From the UHGV virus genome UHGV-1345802: DNA of 14,708 nucleotides. One strand, given 5' to 3'. A program made the position numbers and the translations under genes. This document shows, in pieces, positions 4,568 to 11,439 of this stretch. The notes under the pieces were generated by a model. It did not search any database and was not told where the DNA came from. It saw only the letters and a list, made by a program, of their open reading frames with translations. Origin of the DNA: a virus. Position 1 is the stretch's first letter. Every line of letters begins with the position of its first letter.

Positions 4568-5055
4568 TAAGCCCCCACGTAATTCCCTGACAGATACCAC
4601 TCATCACCCGCTACAGCGCGCTTTCTGCTTTTCCGTAAGCACCGCTCACGACGCGCCAGAAAATTGTTTCGTTCTGGCTGGGAGTGGCTTTCACGGAATG
4701 CCGCCATCCACACGGTTGCAGCACGACGGTATAAGCCCCTGGACTCCAGTTCTTCCGCCTGGCGGGTCAGGCACAAAATCACCCGGGGATCGTTAGTGCC
4801 GACATAGAAATTGCGCACAGGTATGGTTTCAAGAACAGGTTGCAGTTTCTCCTCCTGCGATATCTCAGCCTGGTGTGGGAAATGTCTGCGTGTTTTCCCT
4901 TCACAACAGTGAGCCACACGGCCACTCTGACGTAACTTGCTTGCTGACTGCAGAACGCACTGTCGTGAGTAACCAGCAAAAGCATCCGCAATGTCACCTG
5001 AAGTACACCCCGGATGGGCTTCAATGAATTTCTGTACATCGTTCATCAGACTCAT
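4567..5055 (-). CDS. PerC-family-like regulator with an N-terminal extension (Pch-like)
   Basis: The C-terminal segment AEELESRGLYRRAATVWMAAFRE... resembles the PerC signature (LE-KGLWRRAA-W) as recalled. ATG at 5055 lies 2 nt after the replication-gene stop with a GGGGG Shine-Dalgarno; the track start at 5061 is GTG. Confidence 0.45.
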   Translation of the reverse strand: MSLMNDVQKFIEAHPGCTSGDIADAFAGYSRQCVLQSASKLRQSGRVAHCCEGKTRRHFPHQAEISQEEKLQPVLETIPVRNFYVGTNDPRVILCLTRQAEELESRGLYRRAATVWMAAFRESHSQPERNNFLARRERCLRKSRKRAVAGDEWYLSGNYVGA

Positions 5056-5057
5056 GA

Positions 5058-6041
5058 TCACCCCCTGAATCCTGTCGGGATCTGGCTGTAGTCCACGTTG
5101 TCGTAACTGGCTTTGAAGTACGGGTCCTCGCGTCTGGCTGCAGATACCGCAGGAACTTCCCAGGATTCTTCGAAATGACGATCCGGACCAAAGAACGTGA
5201 CAGCCTGTTTCACAAATTGTGTGCCGCTATTGCCCATCGCAGATACCCAGCCCGCGTAGCGTTTCACACCTTCCAGCATGGTTTCGGGGTTTACCCCCTC
5301 GTTCAAACGGGCTTTCCAGGCTTTGAAGGCTGCTGATTTTGAATTGCCACCAGCACGTTTGGGATATTCCTGCCAGGCCTGTTCAAATTCCGGTGAATAT
5401 TCCTGTCGGGCAGAACGCGCTGGCGCAGACGCGTCAGCGGATGCATCAATAGTGTTTTTAGTCTCCGTTGTAATCTCTGTAGTAATCTCTGTATTTGTAT
5501 CAACATTCGGCGTATCCCCTGTTCCGTTATGACGTCGGGGGGTGTTCCGTTTTAACGTAATAGCTGTATCGCTGATTGCATTATTGCTGTTACTTTCTGG
5601 CGAAACAGAAGAAGGTGTGGTGATGGCCGCAATTGCCTGTGGGTTGATCCCGACAAACAAAATATTGCTGCATTTCACCCCATCGAGCATTTCCACCGTG
5701 CGTAAATCCAGAGTAATAAACCCTGCATCGCGCAGACGCTTCAGCGCATCTGCGGTTTCCCTTTTCCCGAAACCAAACTGCTCAGCAAACGCCTGGTAGC
5801 TTCTTTGCAGTTTGTCGCCCTGAAAACGCTTGCGATATCCCAGCAACGCTCCGGTGTGCTCATCCCTGACCTCTGTCGGGCGGTACCAGTAAACGATCTC
5901 TGAAAGCAGAGCGATAGCCGTCGCATCCGGACGCCCACTGGGTAGTCGAATATATTTCCACCAGGTCGCAGGTGTAACATTGCCGGAAATATTAATTTGA
6001 CCAATAGCCATAACTTCCGGTGTGGGGGCGTAACGGCTCAT
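5058..6041 (-). CDS. Phage replication initiator-like protein (O-position; replisome organiser-like)
   Basis: 327 aa; ATG at 6041 preceded by a strong AGGAGG. It sits between the cro/CII-position genes and the nin-like region, has a Thr/Glu-rich linker encoded by a tandem DNA repeat, and a C-terminal region reminiscent of primosomal or replication proteins. Family assignment is from memory only. Confidence 0.6.
   Translation of the reverse strand: MSRYAPTPEVMAIGQINISGNVTPATWWKYIRLPSGRPDATAIALLSEIVYWYRPTEVRDEHTGALLGYRKRFQGDKLQRSYQAFAEQFGFGKRETADALKRLRDAGFITLDLRTVEMLDGVKCSNILFVGINPQAIAAITTPSSVSPESNSNNAISDTAITLKRNTPRRHNGTGDTPNVDTNTEITTEITTETKNTIDASADASAPARSARQEYSPEFEQAWQEYPKRAGGNSKSAAFKAWKARLNEGVNPETMLEGVKRYAGWVSAMGNSGTQFVKQAVTFFGPDRHFEESWEVPAVSAARREDPYFKASYDNVDYSQIPTGFRG
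5470..5493. repeat. Perfect 12-bp tandem repeat (GTAATCTCTGTA x2) inside the replication gene; candidate iteron/ori
   Basis: Read directly from the sequence; encodes TEITTEIT on the minus strand. Degenerate copies flank it (GTTGTAATCTC, GTATTTGTATC). Confidence 0.5.
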
Positions 6042-6337
6042 ACAACCTCCTTCCGCAGCATGAGAATTGTGTAGCCACGCGCAGGTTGTAGTCTGGCTTT
6101 TGCATCAATAGTAAGCGTTGCAATTTTTCGGATATGAAGATAACCAGCTCTTTCCAGTGCCAGGGTTTCCCTGAATATCGCTTGCTTAGAACAACAGCAG
6201 AAATCAGCAAGCACCTGATGATCAATAACTCTCTCGCCTTCACCGTCTGAAGAACCCGACATCAAAACGCGCAACATAATCAGGCGCTGAATCGGGTTAT
6301 CGAAAGCACATCCGCACACAAACTGAAAACAGTTCAC
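6038..6337 (-). CDS. Small HTH / winged-helix DNA-binding protein (replication-associated position)
   Basis: GTG at 6337 overlaps the upstream stop (GTGA) and has GGGAGG 6 nt upstream. ...HQVLADFCCCSKQAIFRETLALERAGYL looks like a helix-turn-helix. Confidence 0.5.
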   Translation of the reverse strand: MNCFQFVCGCAFDNPIQRLIMLRVLMSGSSDGEGERVIDHQVLADFCCCSKQAIFRETLALERAGYLHIRKIATLTIDAKARLQPARGYTILMLRKEVV

Positions 6338-6558
6338 GCCACACCTCCCAGACGCTTAAACATTTTTCCGGAGCAAAAGGCTATAAGCGGCATACTGACG
6401 CGGTAATTACGGCCCAGCGGTTCACAAATCACCTTCTGACATTCACGGTCAACCAGGCTAACACGTAGAACATGCCCTGCAGGCGTGGTGTACCACTGAC
6501 CCGGACGAGGACAACGGAAAGTCTGATTGGTAAAACGTTTGAAAATATTCCGGATCAT
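6334..6558 (-). CDS. Hypothetical small protein (74 aa)
   Basis: ATG at 6558 with GGGGG 5 nt upstream; ATGA overlap with the Rha-gene stop, and its own stop overlaps the next start. Confidence 0.5.
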   Translation of the reverse strand: MIRNIFKRFTNQTFRCPRPGQWYTTPAGHVLRVSLVDRECQKVICEPLGRNYRVSMPLIAFCSGKMFKRLGGVA

Positions 6559-7706
6559 TTGCGCCCCCTTGCCTCTGAAGGGTTCAGCGACAAATTTATG
6601 AGGCAGGCCAGCGCCGAAGCATCATTAATATAGTCATATAAGCTAACAGCCAGCGGAGATTCGGCTTTTGCCAACATAGGATAAAGCTGCTGCAGCCAGA
6701 CCTGATGAATTGATGAAATGTAGGAACAGAGAACGCTGGCGTTATGTGCAACGTCGCTCGGTACAGCAGGCTTTGAAAGCTGTTTCTCCATCTGGTTAAA
6801 GGCATTGATGTATGCCTCTTTGAACTTGGCAGCACGTTTACCCGTGAAACCCATAGCAAGAAACGCAAAACCGTCGCGGGTGATTTGGTAACAAGGGAGT
6901 TTGCGGCCTGATGCGTCGGTGTATTCACTTAACACAAAAATGTGTTCAGTAAATTCAGCGGAACATTCGAGGTTTCTAATTCTATCTAAAACCCGCTCAT
7001 GCCGTTTAGTAAAGTAATTAGCTACTGCAAGAGATGTGGTGACAACGCGACCATTGATAATCGTGATTTCAGGGTGAGATTGGGTTGGGAGAGTAGTCAT
7101 GGTGACAGCCCCTATGTTGAATTCAATGAACTCACCACCAAGGCTTTCCACGACCATATAGGTGGTGAGACGTACAGGGGTGGAAATACCGGTCAACATA
7201 GAACCCGGCCCAACCGAAGTTGGCCCTGCACGCCCCACCATAATTTGGGCGTAACGATGCTCATGACACGAAAAAACCGCATGAGCGCGGTTGTGCTCTA
7301 TATTGAATTTCGGGTTTCCACGCCCGGCACCCGCTTTATAAGGTGCCGGAACAGTGTAACGTCCCGGAATTGCAGAATCAATATGCTGGTGTTCCTTCAC
7401 ACTCAACAAAATCACGCCTGAATTTCCACAAAGGACTAAAGCACTCATGCGGGTAGTCTTTGCGAAGATAGATAACGCGCTGTGTTTCTGGCTCCCAACG
7501 AATAACATGGACATAAAGCCCTCTTCCGTCACGAAACCAGCGGTTAAGTTCCTGCACAACTCGCCCCCCACAGTCAGGTAAAGTTCTCTGTGGTTACTTA
7601 CAGCCAGGTGATTTGGTAATCTGCATTCATGCCGTAACAACAGGTGTTCAGCGACGCTGACCACCAGCTGTTGCGACAAACGGTTATTTGCCGTTAAACT
7701 GTTCAT
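6555..7706 (-). CDS. Rha-family phage regulatory protein with an unexplained ~200-aa N-terminal extension (possible fusion or two genes)
   Basis: Residues from the internal Met at 7100 (MTTLPTQSHPEITIINGRVVTTSLAVANYFTKRHERVLDRIRNL...) look like the Rha (pRha) domain. The frame is open upstream to an ATG at 7706 that overlaps the preceding stop (ATGA). The N-terminal 202 aa match no family I recognise. Confidence 0.6.
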   Translation of the reverse strand: MNSLTANNRLSQQLVVSVAEHLLLRHECRLPNHLAVSNHRELYLTVGGELCRNLTAGFVTEEGFMSMLFVGSQKHSALSIFAKTTRMSALVLCGNSGVILLSVKEHQHIDSAIPGRYTVPAPYKAGAGRGNPKFNIEHNRAHAVFSCHEHRYAQIMVGRAGPTSVGPGSMLTGISTPVRLTTYMVVESLGGEFIEFNIGAVTMTTLPTQSHPEITIINGRVVTTSLAVANYFTKRHERVLDRIRNLECSAEFTEHIFVLSEYTDASGRKLPCYQITRDGFAFLAMGFTGKRAAKFKEAYINAFNQMEKQLSKPAVPSDVAHNASVLCSYISSIHQVWLQQLYPMLAKAESPLAVSLYDYINDASALACLINLSLNPSEARGRK

Positions 7707-8365
7707 GCGTTAGTTTCTCCACAACCAGAAGCAATCGACGCCACGACGCCCGGAGCTGCACACTCGCGGGCGTTACTCTTTTCCGGCGCACAAAAAACAC
7801 GAAATAACAGTGTTAAATGCTCCTGCCACTTCGCCATTACTTGGTAGCTGTTCTCTTCGATTTGCTCACGCTCAGCCTGGTCAATAACTCCATCAGCAGT
7901 TGCCTTGCGTAAGTACTGGGAATGCTTGCCAATCCATTCTATTGACTCCATCAGCCGCTGATTAATGTCACCATTGTCAATGTCATCAATGTCCACCAGC
8001 GGCACAAACACCCCATTACAACGACGCGCTATCGCATCCGTTACATGCCTGGTACCACTGGCATCCTGTAAAACCATGGCCCACTCAAGTGGAAAAATTT
8101 GATCCCCACCGCTACGCAGTCTGTTATGCAATTGATCTTTCGCTGGGGTGATATCATCAGATTTATACAAACCAAGAATTTCCGCTGCTTCCTCATAGCC
8201 ATGAGGTAAATCAGCAATCGTTCTTCGTATTGCTGCCACCAGCCATGCTGGTTGCTTATCAACTTTCCATTCAGGTTCTTTACCCACGGTTAATTCCTCG
8301 TTTCTGTGGTTACGTTTACGCAGTTGAACCGCTAACTTTTTAATAGCACTCAGGTAATCCATCAT
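7703..8365 (-). CDS. CII-position regulatory protein (CII/YdaT-like, tentative)
   Basis: About 220 aa directly downstream of cro, the slot used by lysogeny-establishment regulators. Start is ambiguous (ATG 8365 or 8362, or ATG 8398); either overlaps the cro 3' end. Family is a tentative recollection. Confidence 0.4.
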   Translation of the reverse strand: MMDYLSAIKKLAVQLRKRNHRNEELTVGKEPEWKVDKQPAWLVAAIRRTIADLPHGYEEAAEILGLYKSDDITPAKDQLHNRLRSGGDQIFPLEWAMVLQDASGTRHVTDAIARRCNGVFVPLVDIDDIDNGDINQRLMESIEWIGKHSQYLRKATADGVIDQAEREQIEENSYQVMAKWQEHLTLLFRVFCAPEKSNARECAAPGVVASIASGCGETNA

Positions 8366-8579
8366 TTGGATTGGGGTAAATATCAGGACGCAGTTCATGA
8401 GGGGTCACGGACCAGTTTCCCAACTCACAAAGTTGTAAAACCCGTTCTGACGGGACTTGATTGTTAATTACCCAATTGGCGACGGATTGAGTGGACTTAA
8501 AACCAAAGCGACGGGCTACTTCAGATAAAGATTTTCCCGCAGCCTTTACTGCTTTCTCTGTGTAGTTTTGAGATGACAT
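8340..8579 (-). CDS. cro: Cro-type HTH repressor
   Basis: 79 aa with an HTH (SLSEVARRFGFKSTQSVANWV), divergent from the cI-like gene. ATG at 8579 has AGGAG about 7 nt upstream. Confidence 0.75.
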   Translation of the reverse strand: MSSQNYTEKAVKAAGKSLSEVARRFGFKSTQSVANWVINNQVPSERVLQLCELGNWSVTPHELRPDIYPNPNDGLPECY

Positions 8580-8587
8580 ACCTTTCT

Positions 8588-8649
8588 CCTCTGAAATTCA
8601 GAGGGATAATGCTACTTAAAATAGCAAATTGCAACTACTTAAAATAGAA
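8588..8649. promoter_or_regulatory. oR/pR-pRM divergent control region
   Basis: Candidate pR on the minus strand: -35 TTGCAA (8629-8634), 17-nt spacer, -10 CATTAT (complement of 8606-8611). Repeated CTACTTAAAATAG at 8612-8624 and 8635-8647. A 17-bp perfect palindrome CCTCTGAAATTCAGAGG (8588-8604) lies between the -10 and the cro Shine-Dalgarno. Confidence 0.55.
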
Positions 8650-9390
8650 ATGACTAGCGCGTGCGATGTGAGTAATCTTCTACCTATGGTAGAAGAACAG
8701 AAGTATCCAGATTTCGCCAAGAGACTAAACGAATTGATGACAATCAAAGGAATCTCTGTCACTCAACTCAAAAGTCTTGTGGGCGTTACATATGAAATGG
8801 CTCGTCGATACACAATCGGCGCAGCGAAGCCACGTGTCTCTGTCATGAGTAAACTTGCGTTGGCTCTTGGAGTATCAGCTTCATATCTAGAATATGGTGT
8901 TGGAGATAGAGAGGAATGTAAGGAAATGGCAAGCATCCCCAATCCAACAAAGCCCGATGTATACAGGATAGAAGTTTTGGATCTTAGCGTTAGCGCAGGA
9001 CCTGGGACCTATATGCTTTCAGACTATGTTGATGTGCTCTACGCCATTGAGTTCACAACTGAACATGCCCGTTCTCTTTTCGGAAACCGTTCTCAGAATG
9101 ATATAAAAGTTATGACGGTAAATGGAGATAGTATGTCCCCAACTCTTGTTTCCGGGGATCGATTGTTTGTCGACATTTCCGTTCGCCACTTCCAGACTGA
9201 TGGAGTTTACTCTTTCGTTTACGGTAAGACTTTCCATGTTAAACGTCTACAAATGCAAGGCAACAAACTAGCTGTTCTTTCGGATAACCCCGCCTATGAG
9301 AAATGGTACATTGATGAGAAGTCGCAAGATCAGCTTTATGTTATGGGTAAGGCACTGATTCATGAGTCGATTAAATATAATCGACTTTAA
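8650..9390 (+). CDS. cI: cI-type prophage repressor (HTH_XRE + S24 LexA-like peptidase)
   Basis: N-terminal HTH (LNELMTIKGISVTQLKSLVGVTYEMARRY) and a C-terminal S24 domain with GDSMSPTL and a downstream Lys (HVKRLQ). The start has no Shine-Dalgarno (ATG 8650 or ATG 8686; track start TTG 8629), consistent with a leaderless cI message. Confidence 0.85.
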   Translation: MTSACDVSNLLPMVEEQKYPDFAKRLNELMTIKGISVTQLKSLVGVTYEMARRYTIGAAKPRVSVMSKLALALGVSASYLEYGVGDREECKEMASIPNPTKPDVYRIEVLDLSVSAGPGTYMLSDYVDVLYAIEFTTEHARSLFGNRSQNDIKVMTVNGDSMSPTLVSGDRLFVDISVRHFQTDGVYSFVYGKTFHVKRLQMQGNKLAVLSDNPAYEKWYIDEKSQDQLYVMGKALIHESIKYNRL

Positions 9391-9624: not shown

Positions 9625-10710
9625 ATGATTAATGAACGTACTGAAGCGACAGATGGGGTAGCAGATATGATTTCCACCAATACAAAATATTTAGTATGGA
9701 ACAACAAAGGTGGTGTAGGAAAAACTTTTCTTACATATAATCTTGCCGTTGAGTTTGCTATATCTCATCCGGATCAAGATGTTGTGGTTATTGACTCATG
9801 CCCTCAATCAAACGTTTCAGAAATTATTCTTGGTGGCAATGGTACCGGGGAAGAAAATCTAAATAAATTGCGAGACAGAAATGTTACAATCGCAGGTTAT
9901 ATCAAGGAGCGTTTTAGCAAATCTCCTTTGTCTCGTTTAGGAAATGAATCTTCTTACTTTGTACGAGCCCATGATGTTAATGCAAAAATGCCAGAGAACT
10001 TATATATTCTTCCTGGTGATGTCGATCTTGATATCTGTTCACGCTTAATATCTCACATTGGCTCATCCCCAGTAAAAGAAGCATGGAAGAAAAGCCGATC
10101 TTTGCTGGTAGATCTAATAGCATCTTTTGAAGCCGATAAAAACATTTCTGACAGAGCAAAAACATTTTTTATTGATTGTAATCCAAGTTTTGCCAGCTAC
10201 ACAGAATTGGGAGTAGTCGCGGCAAATAGAATAATTATCCCTTGCACTGCCGATGCTGCATCAATTCGCGGAATAAAAAACCTTGTTAAACTTATTTATG
10301 GAGTGTCTATTGACAAGTCAGAACAAGATGAAATGTTCTTAGATTTCAACAAAGAAGCAAAGCAAAACCTTATCGAACTACCTGAACTACACCTTTTCGT
10401 ACAAAACCGCTCAAGAACTAATGAAAGTGATGCAGCAAAAGCATTCAAATCACATGCAGAAGAGATCAAAAGAATCACGGATGACCTGTTAAATACACAT
10501 CCTCATCTGTTCACAAATGTGGCTACTTTCGAGAGAGTTCAAAATGTCAAAGATGGTAATACTCTTGCAGCAATAATAAACCATGAGGGATGCCCTTTAA
10601 GTAGGCTGCAGCATAAGAGTTACACTATCTATGGTATGGCGACCCAAGCTAATAGAGCACAAATTGAAGCACTAGAATCTGATGTTTCAACAGTAGTCAA
10701 GTGTCTGTAA
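9625..10710 (+). CDS. Orphan ParA/MinD-family P-loop ATPase in the rex-equivalent position (candidate superinfection-exclusion or defence moron)
   Basis: Deviant Walker A NNKGGVGKT, then IDSCPQSN and FFIDCNPSF...IIIPCTADAASIRG matching ParA/Soj motifs; 361 aa with a long C-terminal extension. The gene and flanks are visibly AT-rich, and no ParB-like partner was seen. ATG at 9625 (AGGAT upstream); alternative ATG at 9670. Confidence 0.75.
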   Translation: MINERTEATDGVADMISTNTKYLVWNNKGGVGKTFLTYNLAVEFAISHPDQDVVVIDSCPQSNVSEIILGGNGTGEENLNKLRDRNVTIAGYIKERFSKSPLSRLGNESSYFVRAHDVNAKMPENLYILPGDVDLDICSRLISHIGSSPVKEAWKKSRSLLVDLIASFEADKNISDRAKTFFIDCNPSFASYTELGVVAANRIIIPCTADAASIRGIKNLVKLIYGVSIDKSEQDEMFLDFNKEAKQNLIELPELHLFVQNRSRTNESDAAKAFKSHAEEIKRITDDLLNTHPHLFTNVATFERVQNVKDGNTLAAIINHEGCPLSRLQHKSYTIYGMATQANRAQIEALESDVSTVVKCL

Positions 10711-10746
10711 TACAATAACCATGATTTAGAACGAACATAATTCTCG

Positions 10747-10770
10747 CCCGACCAACAGGTCGGGTTTTAT
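10747..10770 (+). terminator. Intrinsic terminator after the ParA-like gene (tImm-like)
   Basis: Stem CCCGACC (10747-10753) / GGTCGGG (10758-10764), loop AACA, followed by TTTTAT. Confidence 0.7.
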
Positions 10771-10985
10771 ACTCGTAGCCTGCTTAATAACACTGTTCCT
10801 GACCCGTTGTATCCATAGTTCCCACTATTTTCCCCAAAATTATTACTATCTAATTAACCTAATAATTAAACCAAAACAAAAGACACTCGATATTTTCTAT
10901 ACGTAACTACACCACATCCCCCCATCTGTGAAAAACCTTTTAATTCATAACGTTATATAGAAAACTAAAAATTAAATACACACTT

Positions 10986-11027
10986 CTACTTTTTGTTGTT
11001 GATTTTTGCTACTTTTAGTAGCATCAT
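10986..11027 (+). promoter_or_regulatory. Candidate pL/oL: near-duplicate of the pR/oR cassette
   Basis: -35 TTGATT (10999-11004), 17-nt spacer TTTGCTACTTTTAGTAG (differs from the pR spacer at 2 positions), -10 CATCAT (11022-11027). Operator-like CTACTT motifs at 10986-10995 and 11009-11021. Confidence 0.5.
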
Positions 11028-11037
11028 TATCTGAACA

Positions 11038-11054
11038 AACAACAGACTGTTGTT
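11038..11054. repeat. 17-bp perfect palindrome AACAACAGACTGTTGTT at the predicted start of the leftward early transcript
   Basis: Read directly from the sequence. Same position relative to the promoter as the unrelated palindrome at 8588-8604 downstream of pR. Confidence 0.5.
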
Positions 11055-11439
11055 AACGAAAGGTTGGTTGTAACACGGCGTATGGCACATGCGTCGTTAG
11101 CGGTCTGGGGACGTTAAAGGGGACAATCCACTCCTTGCTCGGGCAAACAAACCAGGTAGCCGGAATGTGCAAGTCAATGATGATGCTGATAAGACGCCTA
11201 ACCAGCGTGGCGATTCGGTTTGACGCTTGGGAAGAGACCAGGGTGCAACGATGAGGGCATTTATGGAGCCGCGACAAAGTGTGGTGCCGTAACTGGCTAA
11301 GTGCTCTCAGCGTTGTGGTAATCCGCGAAATGGCGCGGCGGTAAGTATGGCGGGGTTACTCTTTCCCCGTTGAGGACACCGGATTGTCAGGTTGACCATA
11401 CGCCTGAGTGACAACCCCACCACAACAGCCACTGCTTTG

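Follow-up and report, generated by a model that had tools for sequence, protein, structure and literature searches.

A C4-type antisense-RNA module beneath the extended N-terminus of a lambdoid-prophage Rha gene, with a probable role as a P4-like immunity gate

RESULTS

A long frame that ends in Rha overlies a C4-type antisense-RNA module

The UHGV virus genome UHGV-1345802, a stretch of 14,708 nt (hereafter the window), carries on its (−) strand a 383-aa open reading frame (ORF) that ends in a Rha-family regulator and remains open far upstream of the Rha domain. We found that the upstream part of this frame overlies a predicted internal promoter, an isrK-type small RNA (sRNA), a C4-type antisense RNA with its target boxes and a small gene in another frame (Table 1), and that the whole arrangement resembles the eta/kil locus of satellite P4. 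The locus is probably a P4-type nested-gene immunity gate in the early-right operon of a lambdoid prophage. A first-pass annotation had noted that the ORF is open for 202 codons upstream of an internal Met, back to an ATG overlapping the preceding stop, and both the ORF list and the sequence agree with it: the ATG (7706-7704) overlaps the ymfL TGA (7705-7703) as ATGA, an arrangement that we read as a translational-coupling site.

Table 1. Features of the locus, with positions in the window
Feature	Position	Strand	Remarks
Long eta-like frame, 383 codons, ATG start	6555..7706	−	Spans all upstream elements, in frame into Rha
ymfL, cII-like gene upstream	7703..8398	−	Pfam Phage_CP76/cII-like; PGAP name ymfL
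Segment A, 49 codons	7558..7706	−	No other recognisable feature, no coding signal
DUF4222 gene, 59 aa, GTG start	7378..7557	−	Other frame, entirely within the long ORF
Internal promoter PisrK (predicted), equivalent of P4 PLE	7353..7381	−	Read from sequence and comparison
isrK/P4-seqA-type sRNA (predicted)	7270..7346	−	Rfam RF01394
C4/CI-type antisense RNA (predicted)	7158..7245	−	Rfam RF01695
Leader with C4 targets	7101..7157	−	Boxes a2 and b2
Rha-family regulator/putative antirepressor, 181 aa from ATG 7100	6555..7100	−	PF09669, TIGR02681

The first-pass annotation also held that the upstream segment matches nothing recognisable, a statement overturned by hits to the Rfam families C4 (82.4 bits; gathering score, 45) and isrK (61.6 bits; gathering score, 50), to DUF4222 in another frame (PF13973, 51.2 bits; also phrog_1343) and to Phage_ASH in the long frame (PF10554, 35.1 bits). 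A further match, to RF03163 (c4-a1b1, 25.8 bits), fell under its gathering score. In the predicted isrK RNA, two 5′ hairpins are followed by boxes and then by an intrinsic terminator, for which the terminator scan gave a stem at 7292-7275 and a U run; box a1 (GTGGAAA, 7321-7315) lies in the loop of hairpin 2, box b1 (TCAATATAGAGC) occupies 7306-7295, and hairpin 1 shows compensatory changes among relatives. In the C4 RNA, whose fold has a long helix closing over two hairpins, box b′ (GUUCUAUGUUGA, 7204-7193) is predicted to lie in a loop and box a′ (AUUUCCAC, 7187-7180) to be single-stranded. Seven pairs of the C4 helices carry compensatory changes (38 variants), and the fold was obtained both for C4 alone and inside the 267-nt transcript, in agreement with the minimum free energy (MFE) fold.

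Boxes a′ and b′ each have two complementary partners, a1/b1 inside isrK and, in the downstream leader, a2 (GTGGAAA, 7151-7145) and b2 (TCAACATAGGG, 7120-7110). Among loci gathered by an exact DNA pattern in C4, a selection unbiased as to ORFs, each box occurs in three copies that keep their positions and change together across >20 specificity types. The leader is predicted to form a hairpin that sequesters the rha Shine-Dalgarno sequence (SD) and AUG, and folding of the 267-nt read-through RNA gave z = −4.9, a sign of strong predicted structure. A blastn search reached the P1/P7 c4 and N15 cA regions. As far as sequence can tell, with the C4 fold, a1/b1 and a2/b2 all in place, the locus is a C4/CI antisense-RNA module of the P1/P4/Gifsy-1 type.

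The promoter assigned to this module, PisrK, has a −35 element TTGATT (7381-7376) that overlaps the DUF4222 stop codon, a 17-nt spacer, a −10 element TACACT (7358-7353) and a start at about G7346. A consensus promoter scan returned no site at its threshold, below which PisrK scores; the site was identified by comparison, the hexamers and their spacing being kept across very different loci in which the spacers differ (e.g., TTGACA/TTGAAA … TATAGT/TATATT). We read 7381-7353 as a conserved sigma-70 promoter.

Relatives of the module vary in the boxes (window 7204-7180, 7321-7295 and 7151-7110 and their counterparts in L086-L210, L numbers denoting loci compared here): at least 16 b-box and at least 7 a-box variants occur in many combinations in otherwise similar modules, a pattern that points to numerous hetero-immune specificity classes and to recombination within hairpin 2 of isrK. 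The identity of the window to relatives falls sharply at ~7325. Just 3′ of C4 stands a conserved GGUGGUGAG (7137-7129), found also in Gifsy-1 and most non-P1 module types, whose complement, CUCACCACC (7169-7161), forms the 3′ strand of the helix that closes C4; the element is a possible alternative pairing or processing signal. Tandem isrK-C4-gene modules were seen in L072/L126, L098, L121, L125 and L200, with one long-frame stop overlapping the next ATG (ATGA); in L200, the two C4 genes share the same b′ box and have different a′ boxes.

Rha proper is a nested gene

The long ORF has in-frame Met codons at 7706, 7241 (M156), 7157 (M184) and 7100 (M203). The 3′ end of b2 forms the Shine-Dalgarno GGGG (7112-7109), 8 nt before ATG 7100, with b2 and the SD together placed 8-10 nt ahead of that codon, and in P1 icd, Gifsy-1 anrP, Bro-type and Rha-type modules the regulated ATG follows b2/SD by ~8–12 nt. 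Because the 3′ end of b2 always provides the SD and the regulated ATG lies at this distance, we place the start of Rha proper, a 181-aa product, at ATG 7100, in agreement with the first-pass annotation, which had the Rha domain begin at this internal Met. A search with this 181-aa form gave 105 bits for PF09669 (Phage_pRha) and 99.6 bits for TIGR02681; the Phage_pRha match, above its curated threshold, covers aa 223-308 of the long ORF, that is, aa 21-106 from M203, near the N-terminus of the short form. That N-terminus (MTTLPTQSHPEI) resembles the start of P4 kil (MATTLTPSHPEF), and the kil start EAAIMATTLTPSHPEF of P4 and its counterpart GAVTMTTLPTQSHPEI in the window are likewise alike. C4/isrK modules precede unrelated first genes (Rha, ORF6N, Bro-N-like, icd, kil and a derepression protein).

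In L055, the Rha coding part contains a premature stop (CAG to TAG, equivalent to window 6794), so that its Rha is likely a pseudogene. Roughly 450 E. coli genomes carry the locus, and two adjacent Rha genes are listed in several E. coli genomes.

The upstream codons do not evolve as a protein domain

Scoring by codon usage and by G+C content at third codon positions (GC3) did not discriminate: over isrK-C4 and the leader, the long frame scored like real genes, mainly because the other frames were penalised for stops. Substitution patterns were therefore used instead, with variable columns counted by long-frame codon position (positions 1/2/3) in an alignment of 56 unique orthologues (78-98% nucleotide identity). 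The Rha part (7100-6558) gave 58/49/137, indicating coding in the long frame, compared with 59/69/60 for the sequence upstream of 7100 outside DUF4222; so few third-position changes upstream would arise under Rha-like coding with P = 1.8e-11. No periodicity was found in segment A (16/22/17), in 7377-7158 (31/31/28) or in the leader (7157-7101; 12/16/15), the most variable segment, with 75% variable columns. Across 7557-7378 the counts were 6/27/10, with the changes concentrated on the third position of DUF4222's own frame. Amino-acid identity over 7377-7101 was equal in all three frames; one frame surpassed the others only in Rha (the long frame) and across 7557-7378 (DUF4222's own frame).

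On these patterns, the upstream 202 codons are not a protein domain. The novel domain fused to Rha that the first-pass annotation had considered is contradicted by the counts and by the frame-independent identity, as well as by relatives in which unrelated DNA interrupts or extends the segment. Its idea of a separate gene that had lost its stop holds to the extent that a real gene, DUF4222, lies inside; judged by its substitutions, however, this is a protein-coding gene in another frame with its own stop, and PGAP annotates it separately in L004. Segment A had no Pfam match and no Rfam match at E ≤ 1.

The PF10554 match, at aa 117-213 of the long ORF (~7358-7068), is above the gathering threshold, yet what it matches is the isrK and C4 RNA genes read as if they were protein, and the stretch coincides exactly with isrK, C4 and the target boxes. 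PF10554 likewise lies over isrK/C4 in P4 (L212, 8168-8584), L004 (1792-2337) and L089 (1451-1711), and the same overlap recurs in the “ash family protein” of an e14-like prophage, in a P2-like phage and in the old P4 coding sequence (CDS) “cI gene product (AA 1-137)”, which the P4 RefSeq record still places, as a transcriptional repressor, over the isrK/C4 region. PHROGs 3960/6928 (“transcriptional regulator/repressor”) match over isrK and C4 in the window. PF10554 has been used as an epsilon marker (PMC8628076); the true P4 epsilon/Ash derepression protein belongs to another family, PF25738. Selection at the protein level was not detected over the PF10554 stretch, as judged by the 31/31/28 count and the frame-independent identity. 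To call the label simply spurious would nevertheless go too far, given the reported translation of the eta frame in P4, even though its conservation is at the RNA level.

The long frame looks to be kept open by selection

The 202-codon segment has no stop in the long frame and 14 and 9 in the other two. Only 1 of 20,000 dinucleotide-preserving shuffles kept all 202 codons open (P ~5e-5), so that openness is not a chance property of composition. The long frame is intact in 55 of the 56 unique orthologues, the single stop lying in the Rha part, and the indels upstream of 7100 in the aligned orthologues all leave the frame in register (6, 6 and 3 nt, a −1/−2 pair and 3 nt). Since the first orthologue set had been picked by tblastn, which biases it to intact frames, it was replaced by sets selected by the C4 DNA pattern and by the DUF4222 protein. 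Stop avoidance at the stop-risk sites within DUF4222 is uninformative, its codons Leu4, Val18 and Val28 being identical in all close relatives recovered.

Four relatives carry unrelated inserts between DUF4222 and the internal promoter, and each is stop-free in exactly the long frame. Specifically, stops (long frame/other two frames) numbered 0/14/10 in the 745-nt insert of L163 (4 of 20,000 shuffles without stops, P 2e-4), 0/11/12 in the 678-nt insert of L141 (2 of 20,000, P 1e-4), 0/12/4 in the 469-nt insert of L142 (0 of 20,000, P <5e-5) and 0/9/13 in the 427-nt insert of L135 (39 of 20,000, P 2e-3). The L163 insert is antisense to a toxin-antitoxin pair encoded on the opposite strand (10643-11291), in which a TumE toxin (PF20126) is joined by an HVO_A0114-type partner, and the L142 insert lies over a same-strand gene of the ProQ/FinO family that is read in another frame (4639-5031); the long frame runs uninterrupted through both.

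In no fewer than 10 different contexts, the long frame begins at a codon that adjoins or overlaps the stop of the ORF before it, including ATGA with ymfL, ATGA with tandem ORFs of the same kind, overlaps with ORFs of 69, 75 and 84 aa, and TAAttATG after a 257-aa gene. Where no gene closely precedes it, the frame starts ~20 nt upstream of the −35 element with M-I-R-x-Q-H-I-D-S-A (VKEHQHIDSA at this place in the window). Openness thus looks selected rather than accidental, which leaves the first-pass suggestion of non-coding sequence open by chance right about the material, RNA and promoter DNA, and probably wrong about the chance. Of the orthologue and composition comparison that it had put forward, substitution pattern and composition came out as non-coding, whereas no orthologue has a stop at the junction with Rha; in a few close relatives (L147), a frameshift lies further upstream.

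The module resembles those of P4, Gifsy-1 and P1

In P4, according to the account of Forti et al. 1999 summarised in PMC10111431, a constitutive promoter lies within eta, and its transcript is terminated via CI/seqA interactions and processed to CI, with Kil translated solely on read-through. The same source gives full-length Eta as made solely from an upstream promoter, coupled to an alpA homologue, by translation that prevents termination. Besides the nested genes eta and kil, the immunity region of P4 comprises the internal promoter PLE, seqA, CI RNA and seqC. The P4 eta frame (ORF199, 8767-8168) contains isrK/seqA (8692-8615) and C4/CI (8507-8420), is in frame with kil and aligns with the window ORF (BLASTP, E = 2e-6). 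Both long ORFs are ATGA-coupled to an upstream gene (ORF88/alpA in P4, the cII-like ymfL in the window), enclose a promoter and hold isrK/seqA and C4/CI in the same frame ahead of a nested start; both match PF10554, and the first residues of the nested products are alike. By layout, the window thus shows the eta/kil arrangement: a long frame with a coupled start that runs from before the promoter through the RNAs into the nested start. P4, however, is a satellite and the window a lambdoid prophage; the nested gene encodes the 65-aa Kil in P4 and the 181-aa Rha-family protein in the window; the window frame extends ~100 codons further upstream, fully overlapping the DUF4222 gene; and the spacing from the seqA terminator to C4 is shorter in the window.

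The Gifsy-1 isrK-orf45(STnc1160)-anrP locus shares with the window a promoter at the same place (PisrK), IsrK with its terminator, a C4-like RNA, a2/b2 boxes and a regulated gene, with Rfam matches to isrK and C4 and a leader AUG at the 5′ edge of C4; the in-frame AUG 7241 of the window C4 corresponds to the orf45 start. There, the leader from the C4-proximal AUG is translated and needed for antirepressor expression, the long RNA being a target of the short IsrK in trans (Hershko-Shalev et al. 2016, PMC4825925). The Gifsy-1 leader ORF stops at the anrP start (AUGA), whereas the window leader has no stop from 7241 to 7100 and is fused in frame to Rha; the window frame, unlike that of Gifsy-1, also extends far upstream of the promoter. 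AnrP (L211, 33513-34076) is an ORF6N-domain protein, not Rha, and its locus lies after the Q antiterminator gene instead of in the early-right operon.

The annotated order in P1 is a1, b1, c4, a2, b2, icd, ant, which the window reproduces up to the b2 boxes. P1/P7 immI (c4-icd-ant1/ant2) shares the C4 fold, a1/b1 upstream and a2/b2 downstream, b2 overlapping the SD of the first gene at the same spacing, and an antirepressor-type gene downstream. It differs in having a separate small icd ORF between C4 and ant, with the frame through c4 closed, and in lacking both a match to the IsrK-type terminator hairpin and a long nested ORF. In 2023, homologues of CI/seqA were pointed out within the “Bro” genes of PICIs (phage-inducible chromosomal islands), which are phage satellites. 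The mechanism to which the locus would belong was described for P4 in 1999; in the literature, we found no description of lambdoid prophages with Rha nested, DUF4222 embedded or stop-free accessory cassettes.

DISCUSSION

A proposed immunity gate and its escape by translation

By analogy with P1 immI, P4 and Gifsy-1, transcripts from the internal promoter would mostly stop at the IsrK terminator in a lysogen. Read-through RNA would be processed to C4, which would pair with a2/b2, block Rha translation at ATG 7100 and promote premature termination, so that neither Rha, a likely antirepressor, nor the replication genes further downstream would be expressed. IsrK may compete for C4 or for the mRNA and tune this gate. 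Transcripts from the internal promoter could express the short Rha only, under C4 control. In the induced state, transcripts from the upstream early promoter would carry ATG 7706 and be translated by coupling to ymfL; ribosomes would pass segment A merely as a spacer and traverse DUF4222, the promoter, the IsrK terminator, C4 and the leader into Rha, melting the RNA structures on the way. Such read-through translation of early transcripts, as reported for P4, probably prevents termination here as well: it would shield the RNA and leave none of it untranslated for Rho, and lytic transcription would ignore the C4 gate. The products would be a 383-aa Rha with a meaningless N-terminus beside the 181-aa form. 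The frame would be selected to be free of stops and in frame with Rha, and not for its amino acids, because through-translation melts the RNAs and averts termination.

More tentatively, at a little less than an even chance, we propose that the 202 codons act as a “ribosome conduit”, a frame selected only for translatability that carries ymfL ribosomes past the promoter, terminator and RNAs and so provides escape from both the C4 gate and Rho. Cassettes such as the antisense TumE pair or the out-of-frame ProQ/FinO gene would be accepted only when stop-free, and this could be a general rule for the gapless early operons of many enterobacterial prophages.

Several observations weigh against the proposed gate and its escape by translation. 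Translation of 7706-7101 is deduced from P4 eta/kil and comparative data, and the antirepressor role of Rha is assumed from how relatives are annotated and from where ant/anrP/epsilon stand in known modules. The frame is broken upstream of DUF4222 in 3 of 64 unique DUF4222-selected loci; the near-identical L147 has a 1-nt deletion at ~7562, 5 nt before the DUF4222 GTG, with the other elements intact. In all the frame-broken variants (L147/L220, L213 and L240; counterparts of ~7562 and 7558-7706), DUF4222, the RNAs and Rha are intact, and these may be defective prophages or sequencing errors. In the Roi context (L086 and relatives), the frame is uncoupled, starting ~110 nt after the gene and behind a terminator-like hairpin. 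If the long frame and DUF4222 were read from one mRNA, ribosomes would use two frames over 180 nt. Finally, many relatives share ancestry, and the locus counts overstate the number of independent events.

Other explanations of the upstream frame

One alternative is a pure annotation artefact, in which the upstream frame is never translated, is open by ancestry and by the constraints on the RNAs and DUF4222, and Rha comes solely from 7100. The missing amino-acid-level constraint upstream fits this view, as do the natural frame-broken variants that keep DUF4222, the RNAs and Rha, the fact that half of the Rha-type modules extend just 162-270 nt upstream, and the inability of composition-based codon scoring to discriminate. 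We dropped the idea of a frame open by descent because of the four stop-free inserts, each with P ≤ 2e-3, and the start-stop coupling with many different upstream genes; the frame-preserving indels, including the −1/−2 pair, and the homologous P4 eta, whose translation is given a regulatory consequence in PMC10111431, also speak against it, and we regard a pure artefact as unlikely. Quite unlikely, too, is translation of a short leader only, on the Gifsy-1 orf45 model, from AUG 7241 once IsrK opens the structure, giving a 228-aa extended Rha and making codons 1-155 irrelevant. Translation of Gifsy-1 orf45 from the homologous AUG is required for anrP expression (PMC4825925), and in all Rha-type modules the C4 AUG lies 138 or 141 nt from the Rha AUG, in frame and without stops. 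Yet no recognisable Shine-Dalgarno precedes 7241, several non-Rha C4 modules have stops in this frame inside C4, and this model offers no reason for the start-stop coupling and the stop-free inserts seen far upstream of the promoter.

A genuine two-domain protein, with a functional “Ash”-type or novel N-terminal domain fused to Rha, is very improbable. It would account for the above-threshold PF10554 match, for PHROGs 821/995/3960/6928, which model extended proteins, for the single CDS called by many annotation pipelines and for the “Rha/Ash” proteins of the Stx-phage literature (PMC8951638). That match, however, sits exactly on the RNA genes and boxes, here as in P4, L004 and L089; the segment has neither codon periodicity nor frame-specific amino-acid conservation, also houses a promoter, a terminator and another gene, and in relatives has its N-terminal part replaced by sequence antisense to toxin-antitoxin genes.

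Implications of a probable gate on Rha

Hundreds of E. coli and Salmonella prophages, as well as mEp460 and ST64B, carry a “Rha” or “Rha/Ash” protein whose N-terminal part has no assigned function. In the relatives compared here, that part lies over a promoter, a pair of regulatory RNAs and a small gene concealed there, which explains the mis-annotation, and PF10554 and several PHROGs model translated RNA genes. In lambdoid prophages, a P4/P1-style RNA gate would stand between cro-cII and the replication genes; if so, it would add a second, RNA-based layer over induction and replication besides the CI repressor, with hypervariable boxes defining many immunity types. More generally, an open frame may be long and conserved and still have no functional polypeptide as its product, since selection for translation alone is possible, and, if the conduit proposal is right, such selection would restrict the places at which morons (phage accessory genes) can insert.

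Gene neighbourhood

The locus sits in the early-right operon of a lambdoid prophage, in the order cI, then cro, ymfL, the locus and replication genes; an S24-type repressor is encoded at 8629-9390. Junctions overlap throughout 5058-8579 (cro, ymfL, long frame, orf74, orf99 and a 327-aa putative replication protein), the rha stop overlapping the ATG of the next ORF (ATGA, 6555-6558). From ymfL to 5058, all ORF junctions are 4-nt overlaps, provided that the long frame is counted; if it is not, untranslated gaps of 145 nt and 277 nt remain in this part of the operon. The layout is thus in keeping with through-translation of early transcripts. A tRNA scan gave no match in the window, and a scan of genome contigs with the N-terminal peptide found one locus only (Citrobacter braakii).

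The window ymfL product is ~52% identical to that of most relatives sharing DUF4222 and segment A, although these relatives are 98-99% identical in nucleotide sequence over DUF4222 and segment A; in L142 and L147, the ymfL product is 98% identical to that of the window. This contrast points to a mosaic joint at the ATGA.

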